A DNA stretch of 61,931 bases, counting the filler, from Hausera hauseri (lineage: Eukaryota), in NCBI GenBank assembly GCA_046269625.1. It is 10 parts of 10 records of this genome, joined end to end, with 100 filler letters (N's around TTAATTAATTAA, not from the genome) between each part and the next. Parts side by side here need not be neighbours in the genome. Positions count along the whole stretch, not along the records: positions 4,629 to 9,600 come from JBJURY010374481.1; 9 more parts are not named here. One strand, written 5' to 3'. The position numbers and the translations under genes were made by a program. Positions 4,629 to 51,600 of the stretch are shown piece after piece. Position 1 is the stretch's first letter. Every line of letters begins with the position of its first letter. The notes under the pieces are model-generated. The model was not told the origin of the DNA. It worked only from the letters and a program-made list of their open reading frames with translations, and did not search any database.

Positions 4629-6429
4629 AAGCAAATAGGTGCTGTTACCGTCTATGACTGCGATAAGTTTAAACTAGGACAGAAGTGCTCTCGAATGGAT
4701 TTAGAAGTATGTGAGGACGCCAGACCACACAAATTGGAAACGAGAGAAAAGTTATTTCCTGTACCAATAACAAGAATTAATATCATAGGACGGAATGGAA
4801 TGTATGTTAAGACGATCTTGTAGCATTTTCCATTGTGGATTAATGCATGGACATTAGTCAATAATCAAACCAACGACTCCTCTAATTCCAATGAATTTTG
4901 AACGCCATCATTGAAAACAGGCCAAGGAAACCGGAAGATTAAAATGGGATAGTATGGAACTAGAGATGCAACCCGGAAAAATAATCAGATTATATAAAGT
5001 AGTGGTTGGAAGGCTAGAGATGCATAATGGACATTGCAACGGAACAGAATATGACACTGGAAAAGGATTAGAAGCAAACGTAGTAGTCGTAGATTTCTAT
5101 GAATCAGAGATGCGAGTACAGAAAGTAATGTTCAGCAGCGTTACCAAGCTATATGCAGAAAATCAAGTGTCATTTACAAGACGGGACGTGTGCTTTTAGA
5201 AGTTCTGTTATAATATGGGTCCTTCCTCTGGAAGAAACTGTAACTTTATCAAAATTAAGGAATTGAAATTTAACGAAACTACCGGAAAACGATATATAGA
5301 TAAATCAGACACCAACTCAAGGACACTCGAGGTTGTAGGAGAGCACTCTACACCTACTATATTAATCTCTGACCAGTATGGGCTAAAATTCATCAAGAAA
5401 GAAATGATCTCTAGCTGTGAAGTGGTGATGTTGGCCACCAATTATGAATCATTTTTCGTCGCCGAGACGAAAATAAATGCGAAAACTTACAAGTTAGAAA
5501 CAGGACATTCGGATTGAAGATTACCTGAAAAACCGAGACGATTACCTTTATTAAAAGGACAAGTTGGAATACCCGAATTATACCACAAAATGATAACAAA
5601 TGATTGTAAATTAGATATGGGAATCATGAGGACAAAACTAGCTCTTATCTATACTAACCCCGAGTTAGCCTCGCCAATAATTCCCATGAGAGAAGGAATC
5701 TTCGGTCGAGTTACCGGTGAAGTTATATTGACTTATAAATGTGAGAGAAGAGACGTACCAATCAACGTTGAAGAAAACATTGTATACAAGAACTTCCCGT
5801 TATTTACCAGAATATTCCAAGATTAGCCACGCCGCTTACTAGTGTTGTTAGACAATGCAACTTAACCAACAATGCTTACAGATTGTAAAGCAAGTTTAAG
5901 AGAACCCATGTTTAGGCGTAGCGAAACAGACTGGGTTAGTTTGCTAAGTGGAGATATTACTGCCGCTCCAAATAAATAAACTGGAACAAATCTTGCAAAA
6001 GGGATTACTGACGATAAATTTCAAGATACCTTATCTAAAGGCATATATAGACATAAGGAAACTGAAGCTTTCAGACAATTTCTCGCTTTTCCGAGACAAC
6101 GCATGCATGAATTAAATCGAGCCATGGACTCCGTAGTAGATGATACTCGATATCAAGCTAAATGGGAATCACTGTTTTGTGTAAATCATTTCCGGCGAGT
6201 AACCACAGAAATACTTTACAAAATTTGGGGAAGATTTTTGATTTTTGAACAAGCCGCATCTGGATTTTTATCAATATATTTCCTAATACAAATGATTAAG
6301 GCCGTCATTCAAGCAGTAATAAATGGCTACGAAATATTTACATTGACCGGATTTTCATGTAAAATACTGACTGCAATAATTACACCTTTTGGAAATTTCT
6401 TAAAAGCATACGAAGAGAATAGATGGTAA
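4629..6429 (+). pseudogene. env: Second chuvirus/gB-like env glycoprotein, frameshifted
   Basis: AVTVYDCDK at contig start, IFHCG, GHCNGTEY, GIFGRVTGEVILTYKC, TM WGRFLIFEQAASGFLSIYFLIQMIKAVI. Confidence 0.8.
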
Positions 6430-7081
6430 TCAGGCATAGAACGTCATGTCGGTTATCATAATCGTAAACGAAAAGGAAGGCTTATGTTCTTGTACAAGCG
6501 GAAATTTACAAAACCTAATACTCGAAGAAATAATTCAGATGATGACGAGCCTAAGGACGGAGAAATACGCCCAAGAACAGACAGACATAAGATGTATTTC
6601 GTCATTAAAGCACCATTGCCTATGCTACCCCCTATTGCTCCAGTCTATGAAGACTGTGACAAGCGATCAATGAGCTTATATCAGACAGAAATCTAGAAAA
6701 GGGCAATTAGTTTAGAAGACCCATATGAAGGAACAAAACGTTACGGAGTCCTACGGAAAATGTGTTATCGACAGCCTCTCGACGATCCCAGAATATTGTA
6801 TTCCCCGAGAGAACCACGGAATATAGAGATTAGGTCACATGTCTGGGAAAATCCAAGGTTAAAAGCCTTCCGGAATATAGAACCCCACACTAACAATCGA
6901 GAACCATTAATTAGTACTCATGAAACTGAAGAATTGAACATGGAAAATAATGAATTATATCCAAACGGAGAATTAATACAATTGTCGGAAAATATAGCAT
7001 CCTTTCCAGAAATCCGAATAAACGGACGAATAAATTAAACTCCCAAAAGTTGCATCAAACTGTTTTGGAACAGTAATAGAA

Positions 7082-9600
7082 GGGCGACCCTTCGCCAAAG
7101 TTATTGAAGACTGGGAAGTTTATGCATTAATCGGTACAGTTTCCGAGATGTCTTACATTAAAAAGGATTCAATACCTCAAACGTTGAGAAGACAATTATA
7201 CCCACCATCTACAAAGGATCCATGAAATAAAGGAGCTTTTGGCCAAATGTCGAAACCCATGTTTAAATGGAATCAAGAAGTTCAAATAGTGGGACAGTTT
7301 TTCCACCATGAATTTGCATTTATGGAACAATTAACTAACGATGTAGTTTTAGGATGTAATCTACTCAAAAGACTGCCAAATATAGCAATTGACTTGCAAA
7401 CAGGAAAATTAATATAAATCAGACCAAATAAAGGCGTAAAAACGCTAAGGATAGAAAATTTGGAGAAGTGTGGATACCAGTAGATGAAAATATTCCACCA
7501 AGAACAGATATAATAATCTACGCGCAGATTCAATAAGATGACGATCAACCGGTATATTTCGAACCAAAGGAGACATTAAATCCGAATATAATACTTAGTA
7601 ACATACTGACAATAGTATACTCCGGTCGTGTGCCATCAGTAAGAGGCTTTAGATAGACTCTCAGGAGCAAAGTGGTTTAGTACTCTGGATTTACAATCAG
7701 GGTATCGGCAAGTAGAAATCGAAGACGAAGACCAATATAAAACAGCATTCAAAACACACGATGGTGTTTATAAATCCAACGTCATGCCGTTTGATATTAC
7801 TACCGGATCGGCCATATTTACGAGGATGATGAACAAAATGTTATTGGGGTTAGATCATGCTTTTGCATATTTATATGATGTAATGATAGTGTCAAGAAGG
7901 GAAGAGGAACACCTAAAGTATATTGAACACACACTGATGAGACTGGAACAGGCCGGATTGAAGTTAAGTCCAAAGAAATGCAAATGGGCTCAAAACGCAG
8001 TATCCTGCCTTGGCCATATAGTTGGAGAAGGAGGATCAAAACCAGATAAATCGTTATTAAACAAAATATCGGGTTGCATGGAACCACAAAATCAGAAAGA
8101 GTTAAGGCATTGGCTAGGACTCTGCGGATATTATGACAATTATGTACCAGACAATTCGAAAATAAACGCACCATTATACCGTCTACTTAAAAAAGGAATT
8201 AAATGAAAATGGACAGATGACGAACAGAAAGCTTTTGACGAAATGAAGAAGATATTAAAGAGTGAACGAGTTTTACGATACCCAGACTTTAACCTACCCT
8301 TTATAATCAAGACAGATGCCAGCAAAGAAGGTATTGGGTATGAATTAGCACAGAAAAGAGAAGGTGAAGAATTAGAACATCCATTTGCTTATAGAGGACG
8401 GTCCTGGAAAAAGGCCAAGAAAAACTATTCTGTCACCGAATTAGAAACTTTAGCCGTAAAAAAGGCGCTTCGACATTTCAACGTTTATGTGTGTGGGCAG
8501 AAAATCATAATTGTTACTGATCATAAAGCCGTCACTACCCCAAAAGTACGAGCAAATAATCCAACATGCAGACTTAACAGATGGATAGAAGAAATCTCTA
8601 GATATGATATCGAATTTCAGTATAAGCCAGCAAATAAACATGTACACGCCGATTCGCTATCAAGATTAAAGATTAAAACAAGTGCAATCACTGTAATGAA
8701 GAAAAGTCAGCTTGAAGAAATAATAGATTGCCAACGCGCCTTAACGATGGATAAAGCGATTAAAATCTCAACCGAACAAAGGAAGGATAGAATTATCCAG
8801 CAGAATATAGGATTTGCTGAGAAGTACATAGTACCAAAAGGACGACAATTAAAGAAACATCTACGTGGACATGGACACAAATATTGCGTTCTGAACAAGG
8901 GCCCAGAAAACTTTCTATATTATGATCGAAAAGGAAGAAAACTGATAGTTATTCCGAAAAATTTACGAACTGAAATTTTAATGTCAGAACATGATTGATA
9001 TTCGGCAGGACTCATGTCCTGTAAGAAAACATTAGACAGAATATTGAACAAATATTTTGGGCCCAGCATTTATATTGATGTAAAGAATTGGGTAAATGCT
9101 TGTGAAGTATGTGCGACCAAGCAAAAGAAAACGAAAAAGTACATGGCAAACTGAAACCAGTCGACGTGCCGGACATACCCATGCAGGCCATATCAATGGA
9201 TATCGTAGGACTATTACATACGACCCATGAGAATAATAAATATATCTTAACTTGTATTGATCGGCTAACTCATTTTGTTGAGTTGATAGCGCTAATTGAT
9301 CAAAAAGCAGAAACCTTGGCTAAAGCTGTAGTTAGAAGAATCATTTGCCGATATGGACTGCAGACCAAATATTGACAGATCGAGGAAGAAATTTTACCAT
9401 TGAACTATTTGATAATATTAGCAAAATATTTGAAATCGAAAGGTTAATTACAACTGCGTATCATTCTCGGTGTAATGGAATGGTTGAACGAACGAATGCA
9501 ACTGTCATACGCATACTATCAATCGTAGTAGCTAAGGACCAAAAAGATTGAGACGAATTTTTAGGAGGAACTCAATTTGCAATTAATACCACTCCGCATC
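7082..9600 (+). pseudogene. pol: Ty3/Gypsy pol (protease-RT-RNase H-integrase), degraded, truncated at contig end
   Basis: RPFAKV..YALIGTVS (decayed DTGS), WFSTLDLQSGY, KTAF, MPF, YLYD (YLDD), IKTDAS, NYSVTELE, TDHK, HVHADSLSR, SMDIVG, ILTDRG, CNGMVER. Confidence 0.95.
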
Positions 9601-14447: not shown

Positions 14448-17400
14448 TTATTTCAACCTCCAATGACCATACGCCCAACCCTTATTTTGCCCAACCCACT
14501 TTCGCTTATCATCGTTAAATAACAGAGAATTTCGCACTAGTTATTGTATACAGCTGGTGTTAAATTGGTCGGTTGATCGTTTGAGACACAACAGCCACTG
14601 ATTTTCCTCCTGTTGTTGCTGTTTCATACGGCGATAATCACCGTGGTCAATTTCCGTCTGTCTCAACTGGACTCCTTTTACTCGAATTTTCGGTCCACAG
14701 TCCGTCAGAAGACTGTAGTACTTTGGGCGTAGGAATATCCATTCCCGGTACCGGACATGACCTTCACTTTCATCCTTAAAGCAGCCGGTTTTATTGGTGA
14801 TCGCGCTGCTGTACAACGGATGATCCGCTGAGTAGTTTGATATGTCCAGTAATCCATCTGACTGCATTTGCTACAGTAGCTGTTCGTGATTGACGTTTTT
14901 CAGACGCAGGAAAAAACTGTATCACCGGCAATTATGTCAATATTGCAGCTGTCAAACATTTGCCGGTAACGTGCCAAATCCCGATACTGCAGCTCATACA
15001 CCCGTAACTTGCTCAGGTCCAATACCACTTATCCGATGTAACTTGACCGGTGCAGAACGACGTCTTCCATGTTTAACAGCACTTCAACCAATCCATCGGC
15101 AATGTGCATTGACCGCCGAAACTGTGCCTTGCTGGTATATGTAACCAGCCGCTTTTCCGAGTTACATAGGCGCACATTGAACCGCTTTTTCGGATTCTCC
15201 ACTGCTTTTCCGTACAGAGAATTGTTTTGCCGATTGTAGTAGTCCTTTTCGAACTTTGTACAAGCTGCGGCTCGTTTCTCCGAATTTCCATCTATGTACG
15301 CCTTGAATATGCGCGCCTGAGCAAATCGGATTGCACTATGCAGCTGCGTGACGCGTACAACGAGCTGCATGTAGAACTGTAGCAGACGCCAATGGACCAC
15401 GTAATTCAGCTTTGATTCATGCGACATGAGCAGTTTCTTCACTTTTGAGCCTGGCGGACATTGGTTAAATGGTGCGACCGTAAATTGTCTAAAACGTCAT
15501 GCAGCTCATCTGGTATCTCGAGATCGACCTCCATCAGGTATCCGACTGAGACTGTCATGTCTGCTCATGGTAGGTTTGTCATTATGTCATCCAGATCTTG
15601 CTGTCGACTACCCATTCAAGTGAACCGTACGGCAAGGGTTGCGAAAGCGCCCAGCCGTACAGGTTATTAATATCAATGTGCAGCAGTGATGTGATATCGG
15701 TACCACTGACCTGATGCTTGTTGACAAATGTCATGCCAACATCAAACATTCGGTACATTTCCGGGTCTTGCAGCAGCTCAATGTCTTGATCCAGTGACAT
15801 CAGAGCTGACGCCCAACTCATTCTCGGTATGGAATAAAAGTTGAGTGGCTCAAACCTATCATTCGCCAGCACTTTGGTCCAAAATGCTTCGAACACGTCG
15901 GATAATAAATACACGCCCAGTGTGAGGTACTGGACATGTAATCTAACATGTTTCTACAGCCCAGTTCTATCCAAGATTCTTATGCTCTCCGATATTCATC
16001 TTCTGCGATACCTGTCCATCGCGGCAGTAATTCCTCTGTTATCCAGAGTCGCTCATATGATGTTGCAAAGTCATATGGAAATATGCATTTGCTGTGTGCA
16101 ATATGTGTGGGGAACTACGTTGAGGTTACTCGCACATCCGGCAAGGCATTTGCCAGCTTCGCCAGTGATTCATTGAGAAATTGCAATGAATCAAGGAAGC
16201 GTACCTGGAACCGGTTTATGCGTGCTAACAGGGACAAGTATTTCTCCATTGTTGTTGGGATTATGGACAGTTCCCAGTTCGGAAATCCGTTGATAGCCCA
16301 TTTGAGTATATGGTGACAATCATAACCTCCGGAAATTATGAAAGACCACCCGAAGGAATGGTCGCACTCGCCCTGCTAAATTGCATGAATTTCATATTGC
16401 TCCCAAGTATTGATCGGCGCAATCGTCGTGATCCGGCACGAGCCGTTCCTGTGCATCAAACGGTATTATTTTGTGGCACAGATAGCATTCATCGGTAAGA
16501 GCGAAAAGCAACGGTTGATATTTGTCTGCCAAAATCAATGGCTTATTCCAATTGTTGTGATACCACGGCGCGATTTCCGTTTCCACTATGGTTTCCAACT
16601 GTTGCAGGAAATCACGTACACGTTTCCAACCATTGAAAACGTAATACTGTGGTTTTCCGGCGGCTTTTATTGGAACAACCAACCTACCGACGGCGATTGG
16701 AATGTGCTTTTCATCGTATACGTTGGGCCGCGATAGGATTGACTCGATATCAGCATATACCGCATATGCCGAACTGTCTGTTTTTGGCCAGTCACTGAAT
16801 CTCAGCTTCTTTTTGACTGGCATGACGTACATTGTTGTCCTTGATGAATTTTGTCTGCACAGCGCCACATATTTTTCCCCATGTCGTTTTTGACCTGAAA
16901 CCTTGCAGACATGTAGGGCACCATTTACAATTTATACACTTTTTGATGAATTGGTGGTGATCATTATTCAGCAGTCTGTCCAAATTGGTTACTGCCACAT
17001 AGTGAAATTTATCTGCTTGCCGCAACAGCAACAAATTTACCGAGCGCCCATTCGGGTTCCGACTGCGATAAATTATATCCATGCGTGGGTTTTTGTATAT
17101 CTCTTTGTTTGCTGGTATTTCTACGATTATGTTGTACCGGAACACGTTGATTGCCAGTATCGGATTACGCCGTTTTGAGTTTTATCTGCATCCAACACTC
17201 GCCGTAGTCCAATTCTGAGAAATGCTTACTGCTATGCTTGGGACAATTTGCATGATGTCCGGACACTTGATCATATTTCAATATAGCCAGAATGCTGTAA
17301 ATAAAGCAGTATTTGTCGTTAGTATTTTGTACATTCACTACTGCCAGAGACTGCTTCAAGAATGCAGGTGTCGGTATGAATTAACGTCCAGACAGGTAAA

Positions 17401-21887: not shown

Positions 21888-22512
21888 TTAGCATTTTATG
21901 GGGAATGAATTGTCTGATATTGCAGCAAAGTCAGTGTCGGATTTCTGTACAGAATGATCGTAGTGACTTGTGTTGTTGTTGTTTTCACTTTCGGTATTTA
22001 AGATTTCGAGAGACTGATTCGTAGAAATGGGTGAGGAGAAGGTATTTTGCATTTCGCTTGTTGTATCGATGGTTAGGTTTTTGTTGTTTTCGGTGCCTGT
22101 TCTTTTCGGCCTTGGACGATAACGGTAATCAGGATGTTCTTCCATATGCTGTTTACTGAGTCGTGATTGTTCTTCATAATGCAGCCGTTTTTCTACCGTC
22201 GACATAGATTTCCATTTTTTTGCCTTCAGAAATTTTACTTCTCTTCTCACGAGACCAGACCATAAATGCATTCATTGGTCGTTTGTCGTGATTTTCGCGA
22301 ATCCGTCCATTCATTTCACCTGGTCTGTTTGTTCTAATTATGCGTGTATTGAGTAGAGACAATGGTTCAGATTTCAATGATTTATTAACAGATACGTCTA
22401 GCGACATCGCATTTTCTCGATCATTGGACTTCATTGAGCAATTCGAATTGGTCGTTTGTGGAGTCGCATTGCGGATAACGTAATTCGGCACTGACAAACC
22501 CGGTCCAGTCAT
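21888..22512 (-). pseudogene. SoxD: SoxD (Sox5/6-like) HMG-box fragment with internal deletion and frameshift
   Basis: [20 protein letters not shown] and [40 protein letters not shown]; the PDMHNSNISKILG segment is absent. Confidence 0.9.
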
Positions 22513-23169
22513 ATTTGGCAGAATCGAATTAAATGTTTAGATTGATTCCGGAAATTGCATTATTATTGTTGGTGTTTTGAGCGAACTGCTGATACCAGAG
22601 ATAGAACTGAGTAAGAATTTCTGGATTGAAATGACTACTGGACATTATCTTATTCAAGACGCAACGATTTTCTGTTCGTGTTTGATGGTAGGTTTTTTTT
22701 GTCAATTTTGTCTTTATTGATTATTAAAACAATCATAATAAATACATTTAGTCAAAAAGCTATATAATAGCTTAATAACCGTTGTACGAAGAGCGGTAAA
22801 CAAACTGCGTTCGGGAGCGTGCATTATAAAACATCTGAGGTGTACGATATGAGAAATATAAATTTATGAATGCTAAAGAAAATAGTTTGAATCAATATGA
22901 TTGTCAACTAAGAGCAACCACTAATGACCATGTACTTGATTTCAGTGATGGTAAGGCACCAGTTGATGTTTCCCTTGATGGTCCACGATAATTATTCATC
23001 AGCGGTTCTGATTCTGAAAATGTTTGTCGTGAACTGATAGAACCGGTGTTCTTTATGAATTTTTGATTTGTCACCATATTGGAATATTCAAACTATTCTT
23101 ATTTGAGGATACTGTTCTTGGAATTTACAGTTGGTGTCAGCCGGTATTTATGACGTTTATCTTTACTTT

Positions 23170-24330
23170 GGACGTTTATGCACAACATCAAGCATTGCGA
23201 TCAAAAGATGATTTGATTGAAATCATCCACTTGATCTGAATGCCTTGAAGGAATTGTTGTCGAAGAAATTTACATTTTTGCTGAAAAAGGACAAAATGTC
23301 TGGTGCCAGTGTTTGCATTTTCACGGCACAATGTCATTTTCCAACAGTAAGCAGTCACCAGAATGTGCTGAAAGCACTGATGTTTCAGTTGGATGCTGCT
23401 TTGTCAACAACTGCAGCACAAAAAAAACGGACTGCTATTTCTTTACAACATGACGGAATCGTTGTATTCAAATCTTGACGTTCAGCCGAATTTTAAAATT
23501 CTCAATTTGCTTAAGGGAGCTTATTCGGCAAAACTAACTAAAGTAATTATTTATACACCACCACTGTGGTTTCGTGCATCTTTCAATCTTCGACTTTTTG
23601 TCAAGGAAAAGTTGCAAAATCGAATTTTTATCGTAACATCAATGGATTCATTACATCAGCATGTGACAAAAGATATTTTGCCTCCGAATCTTGGCGGTAG
23701 CAATAACCACTGCCATAGTCAGTGGCAAAGAAAGGCATTCTTATTGATGGGATATTATGAATCGATGCATCCTTCCGCACTTTACGGTCATCAGACTAAT
23801 GGACTTTCACAGCCGCTCAAAACTCTACCGAAAATCAATAACGTTACCGGCAATAATTCATTCGTTGGTACGAATCGTAACTGTGGTGCGTTGAAATCTG
23901 AAGAAGACGATACAAGTGATTGGGATTTTACAACTGTCAACGGGAGTTTGACTGACACTTCATCAAAAACGAAGGAATTGTCTCCTCAGTCCAATTGTAG
24001 TGCTGTGCCTGCATTCGGCCGGAATCAAGTCAAAAATCACATCGACATCCGGAATCGTTAGTTTGGATCAGAACATGTGTCCAGCAACTTACGAGATCGA
24101 TCCACCAAACCTAGCAAATAACATCGGTATTGATTTGTATCCGTCAGTCGATATTTCATTGCACAATGATCAAAACAACAATTCAGCAAATGAAAACAGT
24201 GACTGTGATATGCTTTCGATCAGTAGTTGGGAGTTAAATTTGGAACAAAGTGGTGATAAAGATAATGAAGATGACTGTCAGATTATAAAAACAATGGAGG
24301 CACCGAAATATCACGATAATATATTCCACC
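23170..24330 (+). pseudogene. PTPN9: PTPN9 (PTP-MEG2)-like N-terminal Sec14/CRAL-TRIO domain and linker; phosphatase domain absent
   Basis: ELLSKKFTFL, LKALMFQLDAAL, QKNGLLFLYNM, KILNLLKGAYSAKLTKVIIYTPPLWFRA, LFVKEKLQNRI, LPPNLGG; frameshift in an A-run at ~23420. Confidence 0.85.
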
Positions 24331-24334
24331 TTCT

Positions 24335-26760
24335 CAATCGATCTCAGTTTTCCAAGTCAAGTGAAGTCAGTCAGAAATCCGAAGTTCGGACGTTATCGGC
24401 TGTTACGTCAGTTTCTTTGCAATCCGGATGCAAAACATTGGTAAATCATCGAAAATCGCTGTATTGCTCAAAAAATGTACCGAGGAAAACACGAAATGCG
24501 TTTTGCAAAATAATCAAAAATATAAGTTGTCACAACATGGATTAGTGAAAAGCATGCAAATTGCAAAAATAACGCGATTCGTTCTGCGTCAAATTAAAAC
24601 TGAAGCAATTCAAGACGAAGTTGCAGCACCAACGGAAGAGAATCTCAAAGAATTTTTACCGAAAAATCTTACATATAAAGTCTTTCAAAGCTCTAAACGC
24701 AAAGTGGGCCCGGTTAAATCTAAAAAGTTGTTGAATTGCTTACGTCAGATGCTTCTAAACGATTCAAAGTAGTCAAATATTTTGCATTGATCTGCAAATC
24801 TGCAGACAAACCCGGTCCGGTTGAATTCATGAAAATTTGGCAATTGTGCGTAATATTAGAAGAATGCGTCTTTCGGAACTGTAATCATACAATTAACGAT
24901 GTTTACATGTCTCGGATAAAAGAACTGTCAGATTTCTTCAAAAAACAAGTTGACAATCAATTATCATTTAACTTCTTTCAACAGAAAATTCTGCCATCAA
25001 ATGTAGCGGTAATGTCCAAAAAGGATTTAAAAAAAATTACTGCAGTTCGGCTTCACCGATTAACGACGTTTCACCTAACAATTCGGAGACAAAATTGTAA
25101 CAGCTTTGTCTAAAAAGGGAATATTTAATGTATTACGAGACACAACATATCTTCACTGACAGCATTTGTATGATATCAGCTGTAAAATATGTAACCTTGG
25201 TTCCAAAATGACATCAACTGATAAAAATGGCTGCCTTTAATTAAAAGAAATTGGCAACAACAGTAGTCAGACAAGCGACGAATTCAATGTCAGCAGTTCG
25301 GTTAAAACTCCTGATATGTCTGTCGATATGAATATCTGCTCAACACCATCAGGTGACGGTACGAATAAACAGGATTCATGTGAACCGGTTAATGTTACAA
25401 ACAATATCGTTGATTCATCTGTGTCTGCTTTACTAAATTCTGGTGTTCCAACAAAGACCAAAAAGAAGATGACATCCATCTGGGAAGGTGATATAAATGA
25501 TGAGGACATAGGAACAGTAAAGTGCAAGTAATATCTCATTTCACTAGTGTTACTTGGTGAGTCTGGGGACGAATCGAATGCCATGGTAGAAGATGGAGAT
25601 GAATTACGGGACTCAATAAATCTCAAGTATAATTTGATGGACAAAATCACAATATTTGGACGCATCAAGTTACCCGTTGTTCAAGATTATTTGACAAAAC
25701 TGAAAAAGCGTATCAATAAAGAAATTATTTTGCGACTTCATCCGTCAGATTTGAAAGGTCGCACGATGTATCTTTTGTTATTCCAGTATCTTTACACTCA
25801 TGACAGATGTGGTGTTGTAAATGAGAAAAAGATGGGCCTTAAAGATTGTTACATTTATCCTCTTAATGCTCCCTCTTCAATACATCCGCTTTTCTTACCT
25901 TTTGTAGGTCCAGGATTAGAGAGGCGTAGGCCGCATTTATTACTCCTTATTATCATTCGAACGCCATTGGATAGGCTCAACTATTTGCCAATATCACCAA
26001 AATACGACCAGAATCATGAGATAGCAAGTAAACACGGAATCAATTTAGAGAAAACTGTACACTTCGCTTTGTCAAGCGGCAAAGATTCTGATAATAATAA
26101 TGTTAAACGTCCAGAAGTTATTCTTGATCAGGTATTCAATTGTTCCAATAAGTTGAAAGAAGTTAAAATTCAAAGAGAATGTCATGATACTGATAGGGAA
26201 TTAGTAGAATTTGAATTCTTGGAACAAACTGCTAACGTTTAAATTAGTAGTACTGCTAGTTCAATTGCTTTGTTCGACGAAGAAACGTTAAGAGAAAAGT
26301 ACCAAAAAATAAAAAGTATGCCTCTACCTGAAACATTCTTATAAAAGAAATATTCGGATTCCATAATCAACAAACGTGAAGTTTCAAAATTTATTACAAC
26401 GGGAAGTAATGTGTTTATTCACGTAAATTCTTTGTGCAATGAGGAAGCATTTGAATTATCAAATGAACAAGATGAGGAAGAAAATAATGATGATGATGAT
26501 GATTACGATGAAGCTGTTGATGCAAATGTGAGCAGTTTGTCAACAAGACTTAGTGAATATTACGAAGACTCATTATCGATTGACCATAACTCAGAGTAAT
26601 TCCAAGAGCTCGATTTTACCACGGAAAATATCTAAAGAAAATAGTCGGCAGGAAACACAGAATTCTTGTAACAGTGGTGACGAAGTCATTGATTGGCCCA
26701 ATGAGAGTCCGTTTGAACTGAATAGAACCACAGTAAAAGATATGTGGACGTTTAATAACG
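24335..26760 (+). pseudogene. PHF3: PHF3/DIDO1-like fragment (TFIIS-M and SPOC domains)
   Basis: TFIIS-M-like LEECVFRNCNHTINDVYMSRIK; DTTYLH*QHLYDISCKIC at ~25140 (cf. DTTSQHRAHLFDLNCKIC); SPOC IWEGDI..ITIFGRI..YLYTHDRCGVV..KDCYIYPL..PFVGPGLE..PHLLL. Confidence 0.85.
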
Positions 26761-26785
26761 ATGAGTAAACATTTAAATTAAACTC

Positions 26786-27782
26786 ATGCAAATCTGCGAA
26801 GAGTCCAGCGAGGCACTCAACATATTTCCATTACCATCAGGCTTATGCAGAAATGCTAGTCTATACGGATACTTAATTCCTGTCGAACATGTTTTGGGGA
26901 AAAGTGTTATTGCAGTGGATGAGACAACCACTCATGGACGCAAATGCTATAAACCAACGATTAGACATGGTTGAATTTTTGGTATCGGATAACAGTGTGC
27001 GACTTAATCTTTATGATAACCATTTAAGGAGAATTCTCGACTTGCAAAGAATAATTAAACATCTGAATAGAAAAGACGCAACGTTGCAGGATCTATTCAA
27101 ATTATATTTGTCTTTGAAACAGATCAACGAGATATATCATTTACTGGATGGACATCAAGGCCAATATAAGCATGTTATTGAATCTGAATTTTCAGCCACG
27201 AAGGAACTTTGAGAATCAACAGATAATTTCGTTTCTATGATTGAATCAACTATAGATTTTGATGCCATAAAGGGAAATATGGAATATAGAATAAAGGCAG
27301 ATATTGATGAAAATCTTCACGAACGTAGCTCACAAATTTCCGTTTTGACTGTACAATTGGAAAAGGAATTTTTCAAAGTTGCCAGACAAATCGGCATTGA
27401 ACCGAAAAAGCAAGTTAAATTGGAATCATCGAAAAATTTGGTTATTACATGAGAGTTCCGCGCAAAGATGAAACAATTTTGCGAGATCAAAAAAATCTCA
27501 ATGTTATCGAAACACTAAAGGATGATGTGAAGTTCCATTCTCAAAAAATGGCAAATCTGAATGAAACGTATTTGAAATACTTGTCAGATTATGGTGAATA
27601 TCAAAAGAGTATTGTTGATCAGATAATGCGTATTTCAAACGAATATTCTGCTTCCATATACAGAGTAAGCTTATTGATTGCCAAATTGGACGTGTTTTGC
27701 AGCCTTGTAGTTTCTGCTTTATCTGCTCCAGATACCTATGTGCGACCGTCCGTTAAAGCTGACGAACCCCGATTCATTAAAC
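26786..27782 (+). pseudogene. MSH2: MSH2 central fragment (core/clamp domains), ATPase domain missing
   Basis: ALNIF..SLYG..LNSCRT..QWMRQPLMD..INQRLDMVE, LQDLFKLY, MIESTID, VKLES, AKLDV..APDTYVRP; several frameshifts and stops. Confidence 0.92.
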
Positions 27783-29835
27783 GTTTCAGTCAGTATGTTA
27801 TCTACAAAACACCTCGCAGTAAAACAGGTAAGAATTCGGTTACCCCGAAATCTGGACCCGCAGTGGCAAAGCTGAGGTCCCGGCCGCCCACTGCACCATT
27901 GGGTTGGATGGCACCGTTCATTGCCGCCCCACAACACGCCCCCGGACATATCACCTCCCTATTCCATCTTTTTTTAAATAACAAATATATTCATACATAC
28001 ACAGCATTATATTTACACACTTCGGCCATTCACAACTTCATCTCTACCTTACTCCACTTTCCTGACTTCTACCTCACATACAATGGATCTGTAATGTCTT
28101 TCGCTAAACCCCTCCAACCTTCTACAACTTGTGTCTGTATTACATTCACTTCGGTTTCCGTGGTGGCATGGATTCATCACCCACAATTGATACCACGGAC
28201 AAACTCACCAAACCACAGATCCCTATCATACATTTACCGAAACAAAGCGCTTCAAACACTCTTACACAACACACCCTCCTCACTCATTCACCCTGCACCG
28301 AATACTTCCTCGACAACCAAAACTTTACTTAAACATGGCTAAAACTGCACCAGTTTTGGCTCCAATCACAAAATGTCGTCGACTCTTTATCCTAAGCCAA
28401 CAGCCTCTTTTTCCACTTACCAGCTTCCATCAAAACTAAAATTACCAATATCATCGATATCCTTCATCACACTGACCCATATACTCAACTTTATAATGCC
28501 ATTCTCAAGCTTACTGAGCCTTCAATCTATTCAATCATTTAAAGATTCTTCAACGATAACGCCATGGACCTTCAGAAGCCTTCTGAATTCTTACGCACAT
28601 CCTTGTCTCAACTTAATACCTCTGAGCATAGTCCAGAACTTATTCATCGTATTTCTTAAATGTATTGTCCCTTCAAGTAAGAGTTTGGCTAACCGTAGTC
28701 GAAGACTGCAAAGCTCTAGACAAGCTAGCCGAACTGGCAGACAAAGGTTACGAAGTACTGCACTCACACACAGCACAAACTATCTCTGCGGCATTAACAA
28801 CAGACCAACAACAACAAAATGCAATGCTGCAGCAACAAATTGCGCAATTATGCACGGAAAATGAAATGTTACAAAGGACAATAAACACTATAAACGAAAA
28901 ATTAAACGAATTAGCGCTGCCTCGACGAGGTTTTTCTAGGCCTGCTTCCCCTAATTTATTTAATCAACGTCAAAGACGGTCGCCTTCGGAGCGCGGTCAT
29001 TAATTGGCTATTATCATAGCAAATTTGGTAACAATGCTCAAAAATGCTGCATCGGTTGTAAAATCGGTTGTAATCTTAATCAAATAAGCAGCATTTCGGT
29101 GACTGCCCCGACGATCGCCTCCAGCAAGTCAATACTGAAAAGAAACGACTTTTGATTTAAATTATTTTTATAATCATAAATTATACAGAAATTTTTACTA
29201 CGGTGACAAATACGATATTGCCAACTGCGTGGCACCTATTACTGATACTACAGCTGTCAACACCATCTTCAACACAAACGTGCTCCATCAAATACCACCC
29301 AGTCGTAACACCTTGTCTATAACTAATACTTCAACTGCATCAAGTCACGATGCATCGACACCATCTAACAACTTTTCATCGTTGCTTTCTGATCTACAGC
29401 AATACATTTCGTCTTCCTGCACGAGTCTGTTACAGAAGGACAAATCATTCGTAGTACCTCAATCCACTTTCCATCACATAGTAACAACACATCAGAGACC
29501 AATACGTCAAAAGGTCCGTCCGATATCGCCTCGTCGCAGAGAGGCAGTGGAGGCTGAGTTTCTCAAACTGGAAAAATCAGGAATAATTAGAAGATCAAAG
29601 TCCCCGTGGTCTTCACCACTACATGTGGTTCCAAAAAAGATGGTACCTTTCGCCCATGCGGTGATTACCGCCAACTCAACACTATAACAACAATGGATGC
29701 CTACCCTCTACCATTAATCAGTGATATCCTTCAGAGGCTTCATGGTGCGACCATCTTTTCCTGCATTAATTTGCACAAAGCATACCACCAAATTCCTGTT
29801 GCCCCAGCAGACTTTCCGAAAACGGCTGTCATTAC
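27783..29835 (+). mobile_element. Ty3/Gypsy element: possible PBS (~27837), gag and start of RT; protease not visible
   Basis: Gag DPYTQLYNAILK..QKPSEFLR..LDKLAELADK; YYHSKFGNNAQKC knuckle at ~29010; SGIIRRSKSPWSSPLHVVPKK, RPCGDYRQLN, DAYPLP, KAYHQIPV. Confidence 0.9.
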
Positions 29836-32351: not shown

Positions 32352-34844
32352 TTACATTAGTGCAGCATGTCCATGAGGCAATGTACTGATTCCATCTTCA
32401 AGAATTTGCCTTTCATCATCGAACCAATCGAGGCTTTTCTTCCGCAGAGCAACCGTGGCAATCTGATGTTCCCGGGACTGGATCCTCTTCATTTCGCTGA
32501 CTATGTGAGTTTGTTCCCGCCACACTCTCTCAAAATCTGCAAAGCTTATGTCTTTAGCTAATGCGGCCTTTTGAACTCCCTGGGCTCGCTTCTTTGCCTG
32601 ACCACCTACATCAATGGCGAACATTTTTGATTTCAACGCCACGAAACGAGTGATGATCTTCCCATTCACTTCGTCTTTAAACTTCCCGAGGACCTTCTTG
32701 TTGGCGGTTGAATAATTTGGATGATCCTTCGGATAGTCCGAGGTATCCATATACTGCACCAATTTTGCAAACTTTTCAAAGATATCATCTGTGTGGATCT
32801 GGTACATGAAACTGTCCGGGTCCATGTACATTAGCTGGAGCTACTTGAATGTGGGGACCATGATGTTGTAATAAAAGTCATACATCAAGGTCTTGGATAG
32901 ATCCAATATGGACATGCCCACATATATAGGCTTGTTGAACTCAAGTGATATCTTGAGCATATGGATGCTCACCAGGTTCTCCGTGTAGATTGTGCTGCTG
33001 TGGAATTTGGACATAGCGATGAGTTTCTTTGCCCTCTTCCAGTCACATACCAGCTCGATATTTATCCGGTTGCGGATGTTCTCCATAGTTTTTCCAAAGA
33101 CCGAGTTGTTATACAACTTCAATCGGTCATTTTCAAACTCGCTTTTGGCATTGGTCCTCAACTGGGTATTAAGGTCTAGGTATGGATTCAGCCATTTGGA
33201 CTGGCTGAACTGCAGGGCCCGATGAATCTTGATGACTCGGAGTCCATTTTGGATAGCCTGTTGGAGATTTATGTAATGGGCTGCATACCTCTCCCTGTTT
33301 TCGAGGTGACAGAGCAGCTTCTTACACTTGCCATTTGGTGGCTTCTTGCTCTCCGGGAGAAAAGGCATCTGCTCATGCCTTGTGTCGATGCTATGTGGGT
33401 ATTCCACGTCCACCTCCGGAATATAGCCCGTATCTCCATTGGGATCCATACCTTCAATATCCGGGTCTTGCGGCTGCTCCATCCATTGAAAGTTATCATA
33501 GGGCAATAGGTTGCTCATTGATCATCCATACAGATTGTTGGCATACGGGTATTATATATGAGGATTCCTGAAATGTATCATAATCTGCCATGTATTTGTT
33601 GTTGGCCTCACTGTACTTGTGAATGGCCTGGCAGATTCCACCCCTGATGCTCCTGTCAATCATAAGGACCATATTGTAATCCTTCAAGATTTTGTGCATA
33701 GTTGCCCAACTCATTCCTGAACCTGTAAAGAAATGGGCTGGATCTAACTTGTGGCTCTTAAGATCACATTCGGGAAGCTTTCGAAGACATCAGTAAGCAA
33801 CAGCACATCTGTGAGGAGCTAGATATCACTGTATTCCCCTATTGTCCTGTACTGGAAGGTATTACTGTATGACAACTGACTATAGAAGTCCTTTTTGGCC
33901 GGTAATGCATCTTCATCCAGTGCTTTCAATGACGTTATATAGTCATAGGGGAACACTCCTTTCCGATTCACCAGATCAAATGTATCCGGGAAGAACCTCT
34001 TCGTCTCCTTGAGCTCATCAACCGGAAGGTTCTTCACGAGGCTGTCCAGTAACGAGTTCATGAAGCGGAAGCTTTCGATAAAGGGAAGTCTAATACGGCC
34101 CACATGCTTTGTGAAGTTGATGTACTTCTGTTCACTATTTGGAATCACATCAATGTTCCTCTCAATATTACCAAATTCTCGAACAATGAAGTGGGAGTCG
34201 TATCCACTAAGATTGTGGAATATCACGAGAACATATGTACATCTCTTGCAGCGTATGTTGCAATTGTTGCACACTGCTCCTCGGTATATTCCTGTAAAAT
34301 GGCAGTGATCCCTGACTTTGTGATTGTCCCATGTGAATGGCTTTCTGCATAAGTAGAATGTTGATGCTTTGCGCCATTCACATTTTTCTTTCTGTGACAA
34401 CACCATGTGGCGCTTATGCTTCTGCAACATGTCTTAAAGTTTTTGGGCATACTGTTCCATATACTGCTTAATGTGTGCTGCTGCATTTACAGCCCTGTAT
34501 AGATATGGCAATTTGCACCTTCTGCATCTCCTGGAACTCTTTGAATTCCAGGTAATCTTCCTTGGTGAATTCTGCTACGATGCAATAGTAGGTCTTGTGC
34601 TCCTCCAGCTTTTCTGCAGCTGTGTTTCCATTAAATTGGTAAAGCATCTTTTGCATATTTCCAGCCTTGATTTATGCTTGGATATTTGGGATCCTACGAG
34701 GCGCTCAAAATTCTTGACCCACATTAAATGCCTCTTTTCTCCATCACCCAGCAGGAGCAGATCCCTATGATCCTCCAATTTCTCCTTGCACACATGTAAG
34801 GGATAAAATTTGTCCTCCTCCAATCCGAAGATGTTGATGGAGAT
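32352..34844 (-). pseudogene. polB: Second Polinton-type protein-primed DNA polymerase B with EndoVII-like domain
   Basis: VRDHCHFTGIYRGAVCNNCN, FHNLSGYDSHF, RKGVFPYDY, IRGGICQ, KLYNNSVFGKTMENIR, KPIYVG, YMDPDS (YxDTDS), GKFKDE, TLPHGH. Confidence 0.95.
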
Positions 34845-35760: not shown

Positions 35761-35930
35761 AATCACAATCGTTGTCATAAAAATGTTATCAAATCTGTGC
35801 TGGTCATGTTGATGAAATCTGGCGTAGTGTTCTTTGTTACCTATCGGGTGAGAAACTTCGAGCTTATCGAAAACAAAATGTACATTTGTATATTATGTTT
35901 TAATTAATATTAGTTTCAATGACATAAGCA

Positions 35931-37085
35931 ATGAGTTTTCGTTCCATCCTGAAAATAAGGTATTTGAAAATGAGTCAGAACGAAGATCCTTCAAAACTAA
36001 ATTTATTGAAGTCACAACAGTTGCAGAAACACCAAAATATGATATTTCACAGTAATCCTTCACAGGAAAATGCTCCCGTCTACGGACACTTGGTGACTGC
36101 AGATCAACTGACTCAGTTCAATCAACAAAATTTATATGGTGTTACTGATTCATCCACTGGTAAATTGTCAGATGCCAACATCTCAGAATACATAAACATC
36201 CCTCATTCAAAAAACTATATCTGTGTTAGAGAAACTTCCATTTCGTCATCAGAATCATCAAAACTTCAGTCTACTGTGCCTTATTATGAATATCCTGCTT
36301 TTCGGTACTCTCTCACCGACAAAGTAACGTACACTCCACAGAATCTCAAATCCAACAACAGCTGCAGAAACGAAAACGCTGTATATGAAAATGCATCCAA
36401 ATTCAGTAGTTACAGCTCCAGTCAAACAGGATGGTCTCGATTCGTTACAAAATTATCATCGGAACTTATTACAACATATAAACACATAAATGAGATATAT
36501 TACAAAAAGAAAAGAAATCGCGACCCAGTAGACATGAATGACAGCAAAAGAGACAAGAAACCAACACGTATCGACCAAAATCTCAGCTATGTATCAGATA
36601 AATCCGGTGGTAAACACGCCCATCACAATTCTCAATATTATCAAAATACCGGTCATCATCATCACCATTACCATTACCATCAGAATAAACAGTCTCAAGG
36701 CAATGCGGTTCCTTCGTTTGACAAAAATATTCTGGATTCATCCTACGAATATTTTGTGAAGCCGGGAGAAATTTGGAAGAATCGGTATCTAATAAAATGT
36801 CTTATTGGTACTGGCTCATTTGGACAGGTTGTCAAAGCGAAAGATCTTAAAACTCAGGAGTGTGTAGCAATTAAAATGATTAAAAATAAACGCAATTTCG
36901 TCGAACAGGCTCATATAGAAACTGAACTCCTGAAGGAAATGGGAAAATATCAGGAAATATATCAAATGGCCCAAGAGTGGGGCGCAAATTATATTGTAAA
37001 TCTGAAAACATTTTTGTACGTCATTCTTATCTTTGTTTGGTATTCGAACTCCTTACAAACAGTTTGTATTGTTTTAATGAAATAA
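35931..37085 (+). pseudogene. DYRK1A: DYRK1/minibrain N-terminus and kinase N-lobe, truncated
   Basis: KLSSELITTYKHINEIYYKKK, YEYFVKPGEIWKNRY, IGTGSFGQVVKA, VAIKMIKNK, QAHIE; after a frameshift YLCLVFELL, then similarity stops at ~37070. Confidence 0.92.
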
Positions 37086-37255
37086 GAAAAGAATCTTGCG
37101 ATTGGAATTTGAAAATTTTTTTAGCCATTTTGATTTATGAATTTTGATTTTGTATATCGCAATATTGGATTTCTATTTTAGATTTTATATTTGTTTGGAT
37201 TTCTATCTTTGATTATTTTCCTGCTTTACCAACAGATATTTATAGCAGCTTAACA

Positions 37256-39114
37256 GATGCATACCCTTTACCATTAATTAAGGATAACCTGCACCGGCTC
37301 AATTCCACTACAGTATATTCAACCATAGATTTAGCCAAGGGATATCATCAAATTCCTGTTTCACCCGAGGACATTGAGAAGACTGCCGTTACGACACCTT
37401 TCGGCCTCCATGAATACATTTATATGCCTTTTGGTTTACGCAACGCTGCGCAGACTTGCCAACGTCACATCGATTCTATCCTCTCGGATTTCACTTTCGC
37501 GCATCCATATATCGACGATACCTTGATTGCTTTGTCTTCGACCAAACAGCATGAGGAACACCTTCGTTCCATTTTCCAATGACTTAACCACCATAATTTG
37601 CAAATTAATTTTACAAAATGTCACTTCTTCCAAAAGTGTATTAACTTTCTCGGACACCTCATTTCGGCAAATGGTCATTCTCCTCAGCCAGAACGTGTTG
37701 AAGCATGTACAACTACCCCGAATAACAACAGAATTGAGGATCTTTTTGGGAACTCTGACTTCGTTCGCAAGTATGTGCCGTTCTGCTCTGAACTTACAGC
37801 ACCATTTTTTCACTTAAACGGCGGCAAAAAACATCTGCCAATCCAGTAGATACCTGATCTGGTTGATAAGTTTGATAAGCTACGCGAAGGAATTAAGACA
37901 GTCGACATTTTCGCTTTCCCCAAGCCTGATGCAGAACTCATCCTTACTACAGACGCTTCAACCACAGCGGTAGGTGCTGTGCTTCACCAAATACACAAAG
38001 GAGAAAATCAACCACTAGAATTTTTCTCTCGTAAGCTAACATCCCGTGAAACTCGATATTCAACGTTCGATCGAGAATTATTGGCCATAGTTCTTGCTTT
38101 AAAGCATTTCTTCCACCTACTTGTCGCTCACCGTTTTACCATACAGACAGATCACAAGTCCTTGCTAAACATCATGACTATGAAACATCCTTCCTCACGC
38201 CAAGAACGACAGATATCATATCTGTCGACATTTAACTTTGACATTAAACATATTAACGTGGTTAATAATTTGGTTGCAGATTTCCTATCTAGGACGGTTG
38301 GATCGATTAATTTTTCACCAATTTTCTCTCAAGTACAACTCTAACAGAACCAGCCACCTCAGGACATACTTAATTCTTTTAAGTATTGTACAATTGTAGA
38401 CGGCGTGGCTTTAGACACTCCCAAACCAAGTCATTCCGTAATAATTCTCGCACCACCTTTACAACGGCAAGTGTTCAACAGTATACATTCACTACACCAT
38501 CCTGGTGCTAAGGCAACTTTCCGCTTACCCCACCGGCAAGTAATATGGTCGACTATGCGTTCCGATGTGCAAGCGTAGGATCAGGAGTGCGCGGCCTGCC
38601 AGAAATTTAAAACTACCAAACATTTGAAGCCACCACTATATCATTTCCCTTTCACATCACGTTTCGAGTCTGTTCATGTTAATCTTGTTGGCCCTCTTCC
38701 TCCTGACAACAGTCATCAGTTCGTTTTGTCCACGATGGATCGTTCCTCACGTGGGCCAGAAGCTGTCCCCCTACGGAGCACTAATACGGACACAATAGCA
38801 GATGTTTTCATACGCACTTGGATCAGCAGATTTGGATTCCCTAGATTCATTATTACGGACCAAGGTACTCAGTTTGAGTCCAATTTGTTTAAATGTCTCG
38901 TTAACCGATTAGGAATCAGCAATATACACACATCACCGTATCACCCTTAATAGAATGGTCTTTTAGAGAGATTCTACAGAACACTAAAAACGTTACTGAG
39001 AATCCTCGCGGAATCCAATAGCAGTTGGACTACTCTTCGTCCGTTGGTTCTTCTAGGTTGGCGTAACACCCTTTCTACTTCTACTGGTTGTTCACCTACA
39101 GAAGCCCCCTTCGG
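37256..39114 (+). pseudogene. pol: Ty3/Gypsy pol fragment (RT-RNase H-integrase), same clade as 27783-29835
   Basis: DAYPLP, DLAKGYHQIPV, MPFGLRNAAQT, PYIDD, TTDAS, RYSTFDRELLA, TDHK, HHPG, VNLVGPLP, ITDQGTQFES, NGLLER. Confidence 0.95.
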
Positions 39115-50449: not shown

Positions 50450-51600
50450 CCATCTATACCAAGATAAAAGTTTGAAGCTCTTCACAAGTTCTTCGAGAGA
50501 AACAAGCAAGATACAATTATAAAAAAAAAATTCTTTCAGAAAACTCTCCCAAATATTCCGAAATTGGCTCTCCAATTACCAGAACATTGTCTAAAAGCTT
50601 TCCCGATTCTAAAACAACACACCAATATGAAAATCACTTTGAGTCAGCAACAGGTTGCATGTCTTTTTAGCAAGTGCATTCGTATGCACATTCCCTAAAC
50701 ATAACTACAGACCGAATTATCGGCGACTACCAGAAATTAATTTTGTGAACATGAACAGGGGTCAACATGTTGAACAGAAAATAGAAAAGCTCTAGTGCAT
50801 TATCAACAATTTTCAAAGAGTAACTACTGATATGCCGAATCGAGCAGTGACATACGCGCGTCAGAAAGTATCAAAAGGCGAATTCCAAACCAAGACAAGT
50901 AAGACGTTCACTAAACTCCAGATGTCAACAGAGGGAACTATTGAAGATCAAGGGAGAGGAATGCTACAAGAGAACTTTACGAACAAAAATATAGGTGGAA
51001 GTATACTTGGACACGGTATACCACAAGAAGAGATTTGCCTTTTGATCTGTCCTTAGATGATTTTGCACGACTGTTCACAGAATCATTGACAGAGAGTGAT
51101 GTCCGTATCACAACAGGATGCGAACGCTTCAACAATTGCGAGGGATACTCGAATATGTTCAAGTTTAAAGGCAATTATGAAGACACAACAGAACGAGATG
51201 ACCAAGGTAAAAGATACACCGAAGTAGTAGCTATGGATGCACTATTTATTAAAGATTTTAAGACCCAATTTAAGAAAGATAGCGTTCTTAGAGAACTGTA
51301 TAAAGCTTACTGTGCGTTTAAAGGAATGAACAAATCAGCAGTGTGTACAGGAAATTGGGGTTGTGGTGCATTCAGAGGTGACAAACAATTAAAAGCTAGC
51401 AATTAGTTAATGTCACCGAGCGCAGCAGGTAGTGACACTTATCTCACATTCGGCGGTGCTAAATTCAACGACGCATTACGACAGTTACACAATATCCTCA
51501 TAGAAGGAAAAGTGAATATACAAAGGCCTTACCCATGATTGAAACCTATAACAAACATCTGCGTTACGTAGCAGTTAACCAAGAATCTTTATTCCACTTC
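50450..51600 (+). pseudogene. PARG: Poly(ADP-ribose) glycohydrolase catalytic domain, downstream of gag
   Basis: TLPNIPKLALQLP, ITLSQQQVACL/LASAFVCTFP, EINF, EKL*CI, GTIED, NFTNKNIGGSILGHGIPQEEI (QEE 51024-51032), GCERFN, EVVAMDAL, RELYKAY, TGNWGCGAFRGDKQLK. Confidence 0.93.

Follow-up and report, generated by a model that had tools for sequence, protein, structure and literature searches.

The second of the ten contigs in the analysed window raises the question of whether an envelope gene (env) placed ahead of pol is the genuine layout of a retroelement, or whether two unrelated pieces were brought together by insertion or assembly. The window, the whole stretch of 61,931 nucleotides, is a collage of ten contigs of 4-16 kb separated by N44-linker-N44 spacers; contig 2 occupies positions 4629-9600 and belongs entirely to the element. 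Its best explanation, with a probability of about 0.85, is that a Ty3/gypsy-type LTR retroelement left a dead copy in an animal genome and that contig 2 is an internal fragment of this copy; the element would be of the GAG-ENV-POL, Burro-like kind and its family an abundant one. Sox, DYRK, MSH2-like and PARG gene fragments on other contigs of the window show that the host is an animal.

Pfam and tblastn place on the plus strand of contig 2 a gB-type fusion glycoprotein (PF24664), followed by protease (PR), reverse transcriptase (RT), RNase H (RH) and integrase (IN), the pol order being that of Ty3/gypsy elements (Metaviridae); features are listed in Table 1. This agrees with an earlier sequence-only reading, whose four glycoprotein motifs were all found on this strand, and whose placement of the contig start in the env signal-cleavage region was borne out by alignment of 4638-4750 with the first env residues of relatives. 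The other end of the contig lies inside the integrase core. The same reading described "linker ORFs" followed by a "full" pol; the order holds, but the linker is the env frame continued to 7038, with no separate genes, and pol has a cut integrase and lacks about 165-175 residues near 7615-7643, between the post-PR segment and RT, including the RT N-terminus. Contig 2 is a decayed, dead copy, with many stops, about six frame breaks (near 4750 (4745-4753), 7040-7080, 7445, 7620-7640, 9140 and 9365) and this deletion before RT; the catalytic motifs of both PR and RT (near 7124 and near 7865) are degraded. Because of the decay and the deletion, its pol is complete in order and incomplete in length. 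Base composition is even over env, linker and pol.

Table 1. Features of contig 2 and of the companion element on contig 1 (window coordinates).
Feature	Position	Strand	Basis and remarks
End of internal signal region and first env residues	4629..4750	+	tblastn to first env residues of P0001, P0285, L001; aligned part 4638-4750; frame break near 4745-4753
gB-type (class III) fusion glycoprotein ectodomain and membrane anchor	4753..6429	+	PF24664; 10 in-frame stops
Hydrophobic stretches	6253..6390	+	main membrane anchor 6253-6324, weaker second stretch 6334-6390; Kyte-Doolittle windows
Spacer in env frame (cytoplasmic tail / env-PR linker)	6430..7038	+	matches no known family; open frame
Retropepsin remnant	7082..7441	+	tblastn to PR of P0001, P0151, P0155, L002; degraded catalytic motif near 7124; frame break separates linker from PR
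Start of post-PR segment of relatives (dUTPase-like position in Burro; likeness positional only)	7447..7617	+	tblastn to P0001 1202-1250, P0285 2275-2319, L001 1959-2012; truncated by deletion
Reverse transcriptase without N-terminus	7643..8023	+	RVT_1 profile positions 56-205 of 205; degraded catalytic motif near 7865
RNase H	8210..8605	+	RT_RNaseH_2 7e-32, RT_RNaseH 5.5e-27
Integrase zinc finger and core	8951..9600	+	Integrase_H2C2, rve, tblastn; frame breaks near 9140 and 9365; core truncated by contig end
Companion element, contig 1	245..4526	-	upstream region, possible Bcl-2-like helices, internal signal, env, linker, PR, pre-RT stretch

Among the pol domains, RVT_1 (E 3e-24) and Integrase_H2C2 (E 1.4e-10) were recognized by Pfam, while rve, split by a frame break, scored below the Pfam cut-off (E 5.4e-6). 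The protease was not detected in the Pfam scan and was identified by tblastn to the PR of relatives (E 7e-8 to 2e-6). No Pfam scan named a dUTPase, either in the post-PR remnant of contig 2 or in the relatives. All of the best 120 of 337 pol matches, found among proteins of 607-2000 aa, carry gypsy-type domain sets and are 36-44% identical to contig 2.

The glycoprotein is of the gB/class III type: its match to Monjiviricetes_fusion (PF24664; E 2.4e-28) scores 98.9 bits versus a cut-off of 27, and 11 of the 14 cysteine columns conserved in five relatives are kept. All Foldseek matches listed for the env model are class III fusogens (herpesvirus gB, GP64, Dhori virus glycoprotein), with weak scores (best E 4e-4, TM about 0.1) obtained from a low-confidence model (pLDDT 58). 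The env profile found no fusogen among PDB sequences, its matches there being weak ones to retropepsins that come from the downstream part of the relatives. A word-indexed env search of proteins of 892-2545 aa retained none of 4560 candidates, and the env pattern was confirmed in none of 13 matching viral contigs and in 2 of 153 matching metagenome contigs.

Env ends near 6429 and PR starts near 7082, on the same strand and within 2 kb; about 300 codons separate the env anchor motif from PR, compared with 129-389 in relatives. The linker continues the env frame: its 202 codons contain one internal stop where 13.8 would be expected, an openness reached by none of 5000 shuffles. It matches no Pfam family and none of the fetched proteins. 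Since the linker is open and shares the env frame, env and pol appear to have once formed one polyprotein and not a nested insertion.

The sequence-only reading had already argued against chance nesting, and on this point it is upheld. That a chuvirus-like glycoprotein was inserted by chance upstream of an unrelated gypsy pol, or that another element left its 3' env there, is very improbable and already largely refuted by the open in-frame linker, by the lack of either an LTR or gag between env and PR (the repeat search of contig 2 yielded just short two-copy matches, and no LTR-like repeat at the junction), by the grouping of its env with polyprotein envs and not with stand-alone glycoproteins, and by the fact that env and pol lead independently to the same set of relatives. 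Such nesting could draw on the weak placement of pol in trees, on further places in the window where gypsy pol is fused to pieces unrelated to it, and on the pol-alone search, where none of the best 120 of 337 matches (607-2000 aa) has env in the same protein, a count limited as evidence because this size range excludes most whole polyproteins.

A chimeric contig assembled from two repeat families would be a different kind of accident, and we rate it lowest of all. The assembly is fragmented and the family highly repeated; still, a chimera is not expected to hold a frame over 200 codons, nor to match the order and spacing of intact relatives. The search of sequencing runs for contig 2 gave one run with a match (X1), and no RNA run was listed. 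In X1, contig 2 is matched by 16,038 contigs, 659 of them at no less than 99% and 5458 below 90%, a depth that is not a copy number, in a run that is possibly the source of the window itself. Coverage is continuous (30 of 30 bins), and 1% of these contigs continue into unlike sequence. Joints connect env to linker and linker to PR, but the whole junction is spanned by no piece among the contigs listed.

One feature of the junction bears on how env and pol were expressed. Env and linker share one frame in the contig 2 copy, and the frame changes between linker and PR, a place where ten relatives are unbroken. One alternative keeps env-before-pol as genuine but takes env (plus linker) and pol to be separate ORFs, joined at about 7040 by a programmed frameshift or expressed from separate transcripts. 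Three ORFs are described for such elements in the consulted part of PMC13524379, and some relatives are stored as env-PR pieces. We regard this arrangement as unlikely: ten relatives run from env to RT without a break, and decay suffices for the linker-PR break because contig 2 has about five other breaks inside domains.

A full HMMER search with env against 1.84 billion representatives gave 205 matches; 16 of the best 150 were scanned, followed by 13 more proteins. Nine of the ten best env matches have a retropepsin downstream of env within one ORF, scoring below cut-off in one of them; the tenth ends with env. In ten relatives env-PR-RT-RH is encoded without interruption by a single ORF (1251-4844 aa): P0001, P0003, P0007, P0015, P0024, P0151, P0285, P0287 and two metagenome loci, L001 and L002. 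P0285 (3735 aa), a cluster member of P0155, has the order capsid-CCHC-env-PR-RT-RH-IN and is colinear with contig 2 over 4641-9599; L002 (3703 aa) comprises gag, two zinc knuckles, a ubiquitin-like domain, env, PR, RT, RH and IN. P0155 was found by the pol-alone search (second in its listing) and ranks first when 127 sequences are scored for pol, whether by RT-RH-IN or by IN alone. The six best matches to the integrase part of contig 2 are all env-pol elements; two other env-pol relatives, P0015 and P0024, fall outside the 15 best. Gag lies upstream of env in P0010, P0285 and L002. The opposite order occurs in P0019, where a related glycoprotein follows RT-RH. Identity of contig 2 to the unnamed polyproteins P0001, P0003, P0151, P0285 and P0287 and the loci L001 and L002 is just 25-30% in env and 36-45% in pol; none of the ten best env matches exceeds 30%, and no RT-RH match exceeds 44%. 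The entry of P0001 as a hypothetical protein of a Flavobacteriaceae MAG most likely reflects animal contamination of the bin.

The sequence-only reading had proposed two families with the same order, the other being on contig 1. The two families are indeed distinct, as their envs are 21% identical over 615 columns and blastn finds no match between them; contig 1, however, shows env-PR and a pre-RT stretch, without RT-RH-IN. Its closest relative, P0016, is 33-87% identical by segment. The possible Bcl-2-like region of contig 1 has no Pfam match, and a profile search ranks Bcl-xL first (E 0.08). A fold model tried on this region was too poor to serve as a Bcl-2 test (pLDDT 43); what it matched were generic helical hairpins, none with a Z of 8. 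Bcl-2 matches in relatives are weak (E 0.00096 in P0004, 0.055 in P0131), and a ubiquitin match in part of L002 has E 0.00014.

The further claim of an old, diversified clade is supported here for env, and the pol trees do not settle it. In a quick, midpoint-rooted env tree (43 of 92 rows used), contigs 1 and 2 fall in a clade of 18 retroelement envs with SH-aLRT 100, apart from the remaining 25 glycoproteins, mostly stand-alone ones of about 650 aa. Pol of contig 2 is a long branch that joins the env-pol group in three trees (SH-aLRT 91 in one, support of 74/54 and 90/85 in the others); an alternative placement is not rejected in the 74/54 tree (p-AU 0.19), and two further pol trees do not resolve its position. 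The pol trees used the 120 matches thinned to 15, with further long or short rows dropped in the later ones, and consist of sequences other than named reference clades. Pol support across the five trees is therefore weak or model-dependent. A single env acquisition is plausible and no more, because the pol placement of contig 2 is unstable and contig 1 is without RT; GAG-ENV-POL elements are, moreover, reported as non-monophyletic in PMC13524379.

The novelty implied by the "non-canonical order" of the sequence-only reading is not supported. For planarian Burro elements, the consulted part of PMC6431247 describes a single ORF with gag-Ubl-BCL2-env-PR-RT-RH-IN, and so has the same order, an env in frame and the neighbour of Bcl-2-like type. 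Contig 2 is thus a divergent, decayed further member of an already described element type. With Burro / GYPSM1 it shares a Mononegavirus-type env directly before PR-RT-RH-IN, probably in frame and in one polyprotein (a frame break separates linker and PR in the contig 2 copy), as well as a segment between PR and RT; decayed copies occur there too, as far as that part of PMC6431247 describes them. Ubiquitin-like and BCL2-like domains upstream of env are a likeness of the relatives L002, P0131 and P0004 (weak matches). The giant size of Burro (over 30 kb) and its BIR, MATH and gag lie beyond the 5-kb contig 2, in a comparison made by the description in that source and not by sequence.

Likewise, the "errantiviruses" of GAG-ENV-POL order and HSV/gB type in PMC13524379 share with contig 2 a gB-type env upstream of a Ty3/gypsy pol. 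According to the consulted part of that paper, such elements are known in Nematoda, Bryozoa and Platyhelminthes (Sacco et al. 2022 is cited for the nematode ones) and are non-monophyletic in its pol tree; its supplementary file 1 has 10 bryozoan and 9 flatworm rows of them. The main text, as consulted, covers intact copies and is without the words polyprotein, Burro and Bcl; a text search of the supplement, figures being outside it, gave no match to the element names. Chuvirus G and Anakin, the latter being Bel/Pao elements that carry a chuvirus glycoprotein, have the glycoprotein superfamily PF24664 in common with contig 2, by the consulted parts of PMC12440569 and PMC13524379, whereas the env of contig 2 lies outside the stand-alone glycoprotein group of about 650 aa and its pol matches proteins of gypsy type. 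Troyka, taken up as a lead from the consulted part of PMC12440569, proved to be background only, with no bearing on the contig 2 element.

From the architecture of the relatives we infer how a working element may operate. A single ORF, seen in relatives and in contig 2 from env onward only, would encode Gag, accessory domains, Env and Pol. An internal signal sequence would thread the Env ectodomain into the ER, and a signal peptidase cut just before the first Env motif would release the Gag side. The Env membrane anchor would then halt transfer, leaving linker, PR, RT, RH and IN cytosolic and still joined to the tail of Env; the protease would later release Pol. Hydrophobic segments before env in 12 of 16 relatives and after env in 14 of 16 fit an internal signal ahead of a lumenal ectodomain, with an anchor that keeps Pol cytosolic. 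The second hydrophobic stretch of contig 2 (6334-6390), if it crosses the membrane, would put PR on the wrong side. One polyprotein predicts Gag, Env and Pol in equal amounts, which would need neither splicing nor a programmed frameshift, and packaging of Pol into budding particles by way of the Env tail. The class III fusogen could then mediate particle entry into neighbouring or germline cells.

The env-first layout is unusual yet already published; contig 2 adds to it a very divergent family, the second in the same genome, and its relatives provide evidence for env and pol as one polyprotein. The significance would be greater with a host outside flatworms, nematodes and bryozoans. A more far-reaching interpretation, which we consider possible but doubtful, places contig 2 in a deep, previously unsampled lineage whose elements encode gag, env and pol as a single polyprotein and which expanded to many copies in an animal belonging to none of the three published phyla. 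With contig 1 and the unnamed relatives it would then make up one old, widespread group of Burro-like polyproteins in which Pol is tethered to the Env tail and integrase is followed by a second, unclassified protein with a membrane anchor.

Several features of the relatives lie beyond the reach of contig 2. P0001, P0003, P0151, P0285, P0287, L001 and L002 resemble it in being colinear over env-PR-RT-RH-IN in one ORF; several of them differ from it in having additional protease-like repeats and, beyond IN, a membrane-anchored tail. Eight polyproteins, these seven and P0015, have a region past integrase with hydrophobic segments at both bounds (about 8970-10282 in L001, about 9900-11208 in L002), which by its sequence may resemble a second membrane-anchored protein. 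A further copy of such a region precedes the last protease of L001. The L002 tail matches no Pfam family and no PDB sequence, and a tail of this kind is not mentioned in the consulted parts of PMC6431247 and PMC13524379. Two to six protease-like repeats per polyprotein were seen in P0151, P0006, P0003, L001 and L002. A separate downstream ORF at L002 12085-13473 has a weak RNase_T exonuclease match (E 0.0011), and the apparent start of a similar ORF was found at L001 10617-11216.

Other contigs of the window contain retroelement-like and cellular pieces of their own. At 21888-29835, apparently intron-free, frameshifted cellular gene pieces (Sox HMG, CRAL-TRIO, TFIIS_M plus SPOC, MutS-like) are directly followed by a gypsy-like RT; they are possibly a cluster of retrocopies or captured genes, and the MSH2-like label of the MutS piece is our reading of a MutS_IV match. 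An apparently intron-free DYRK1-like fragment, with matches of 34-38% that are equal across several phyla, adjoins gypsy RT-RH-IN at 35928-39097. Decayed pieces of protein-primed type B DNA polymerase, Maverick/Polinton-like, lie at 32355-34433 (Pfam DNA_pol_B_2 matches) and 15032-17181 (judged by eye). Finally, a PARG macrodomain fragment (50945-51406, E 5e-37) is situated amid retroelement-like pieces.
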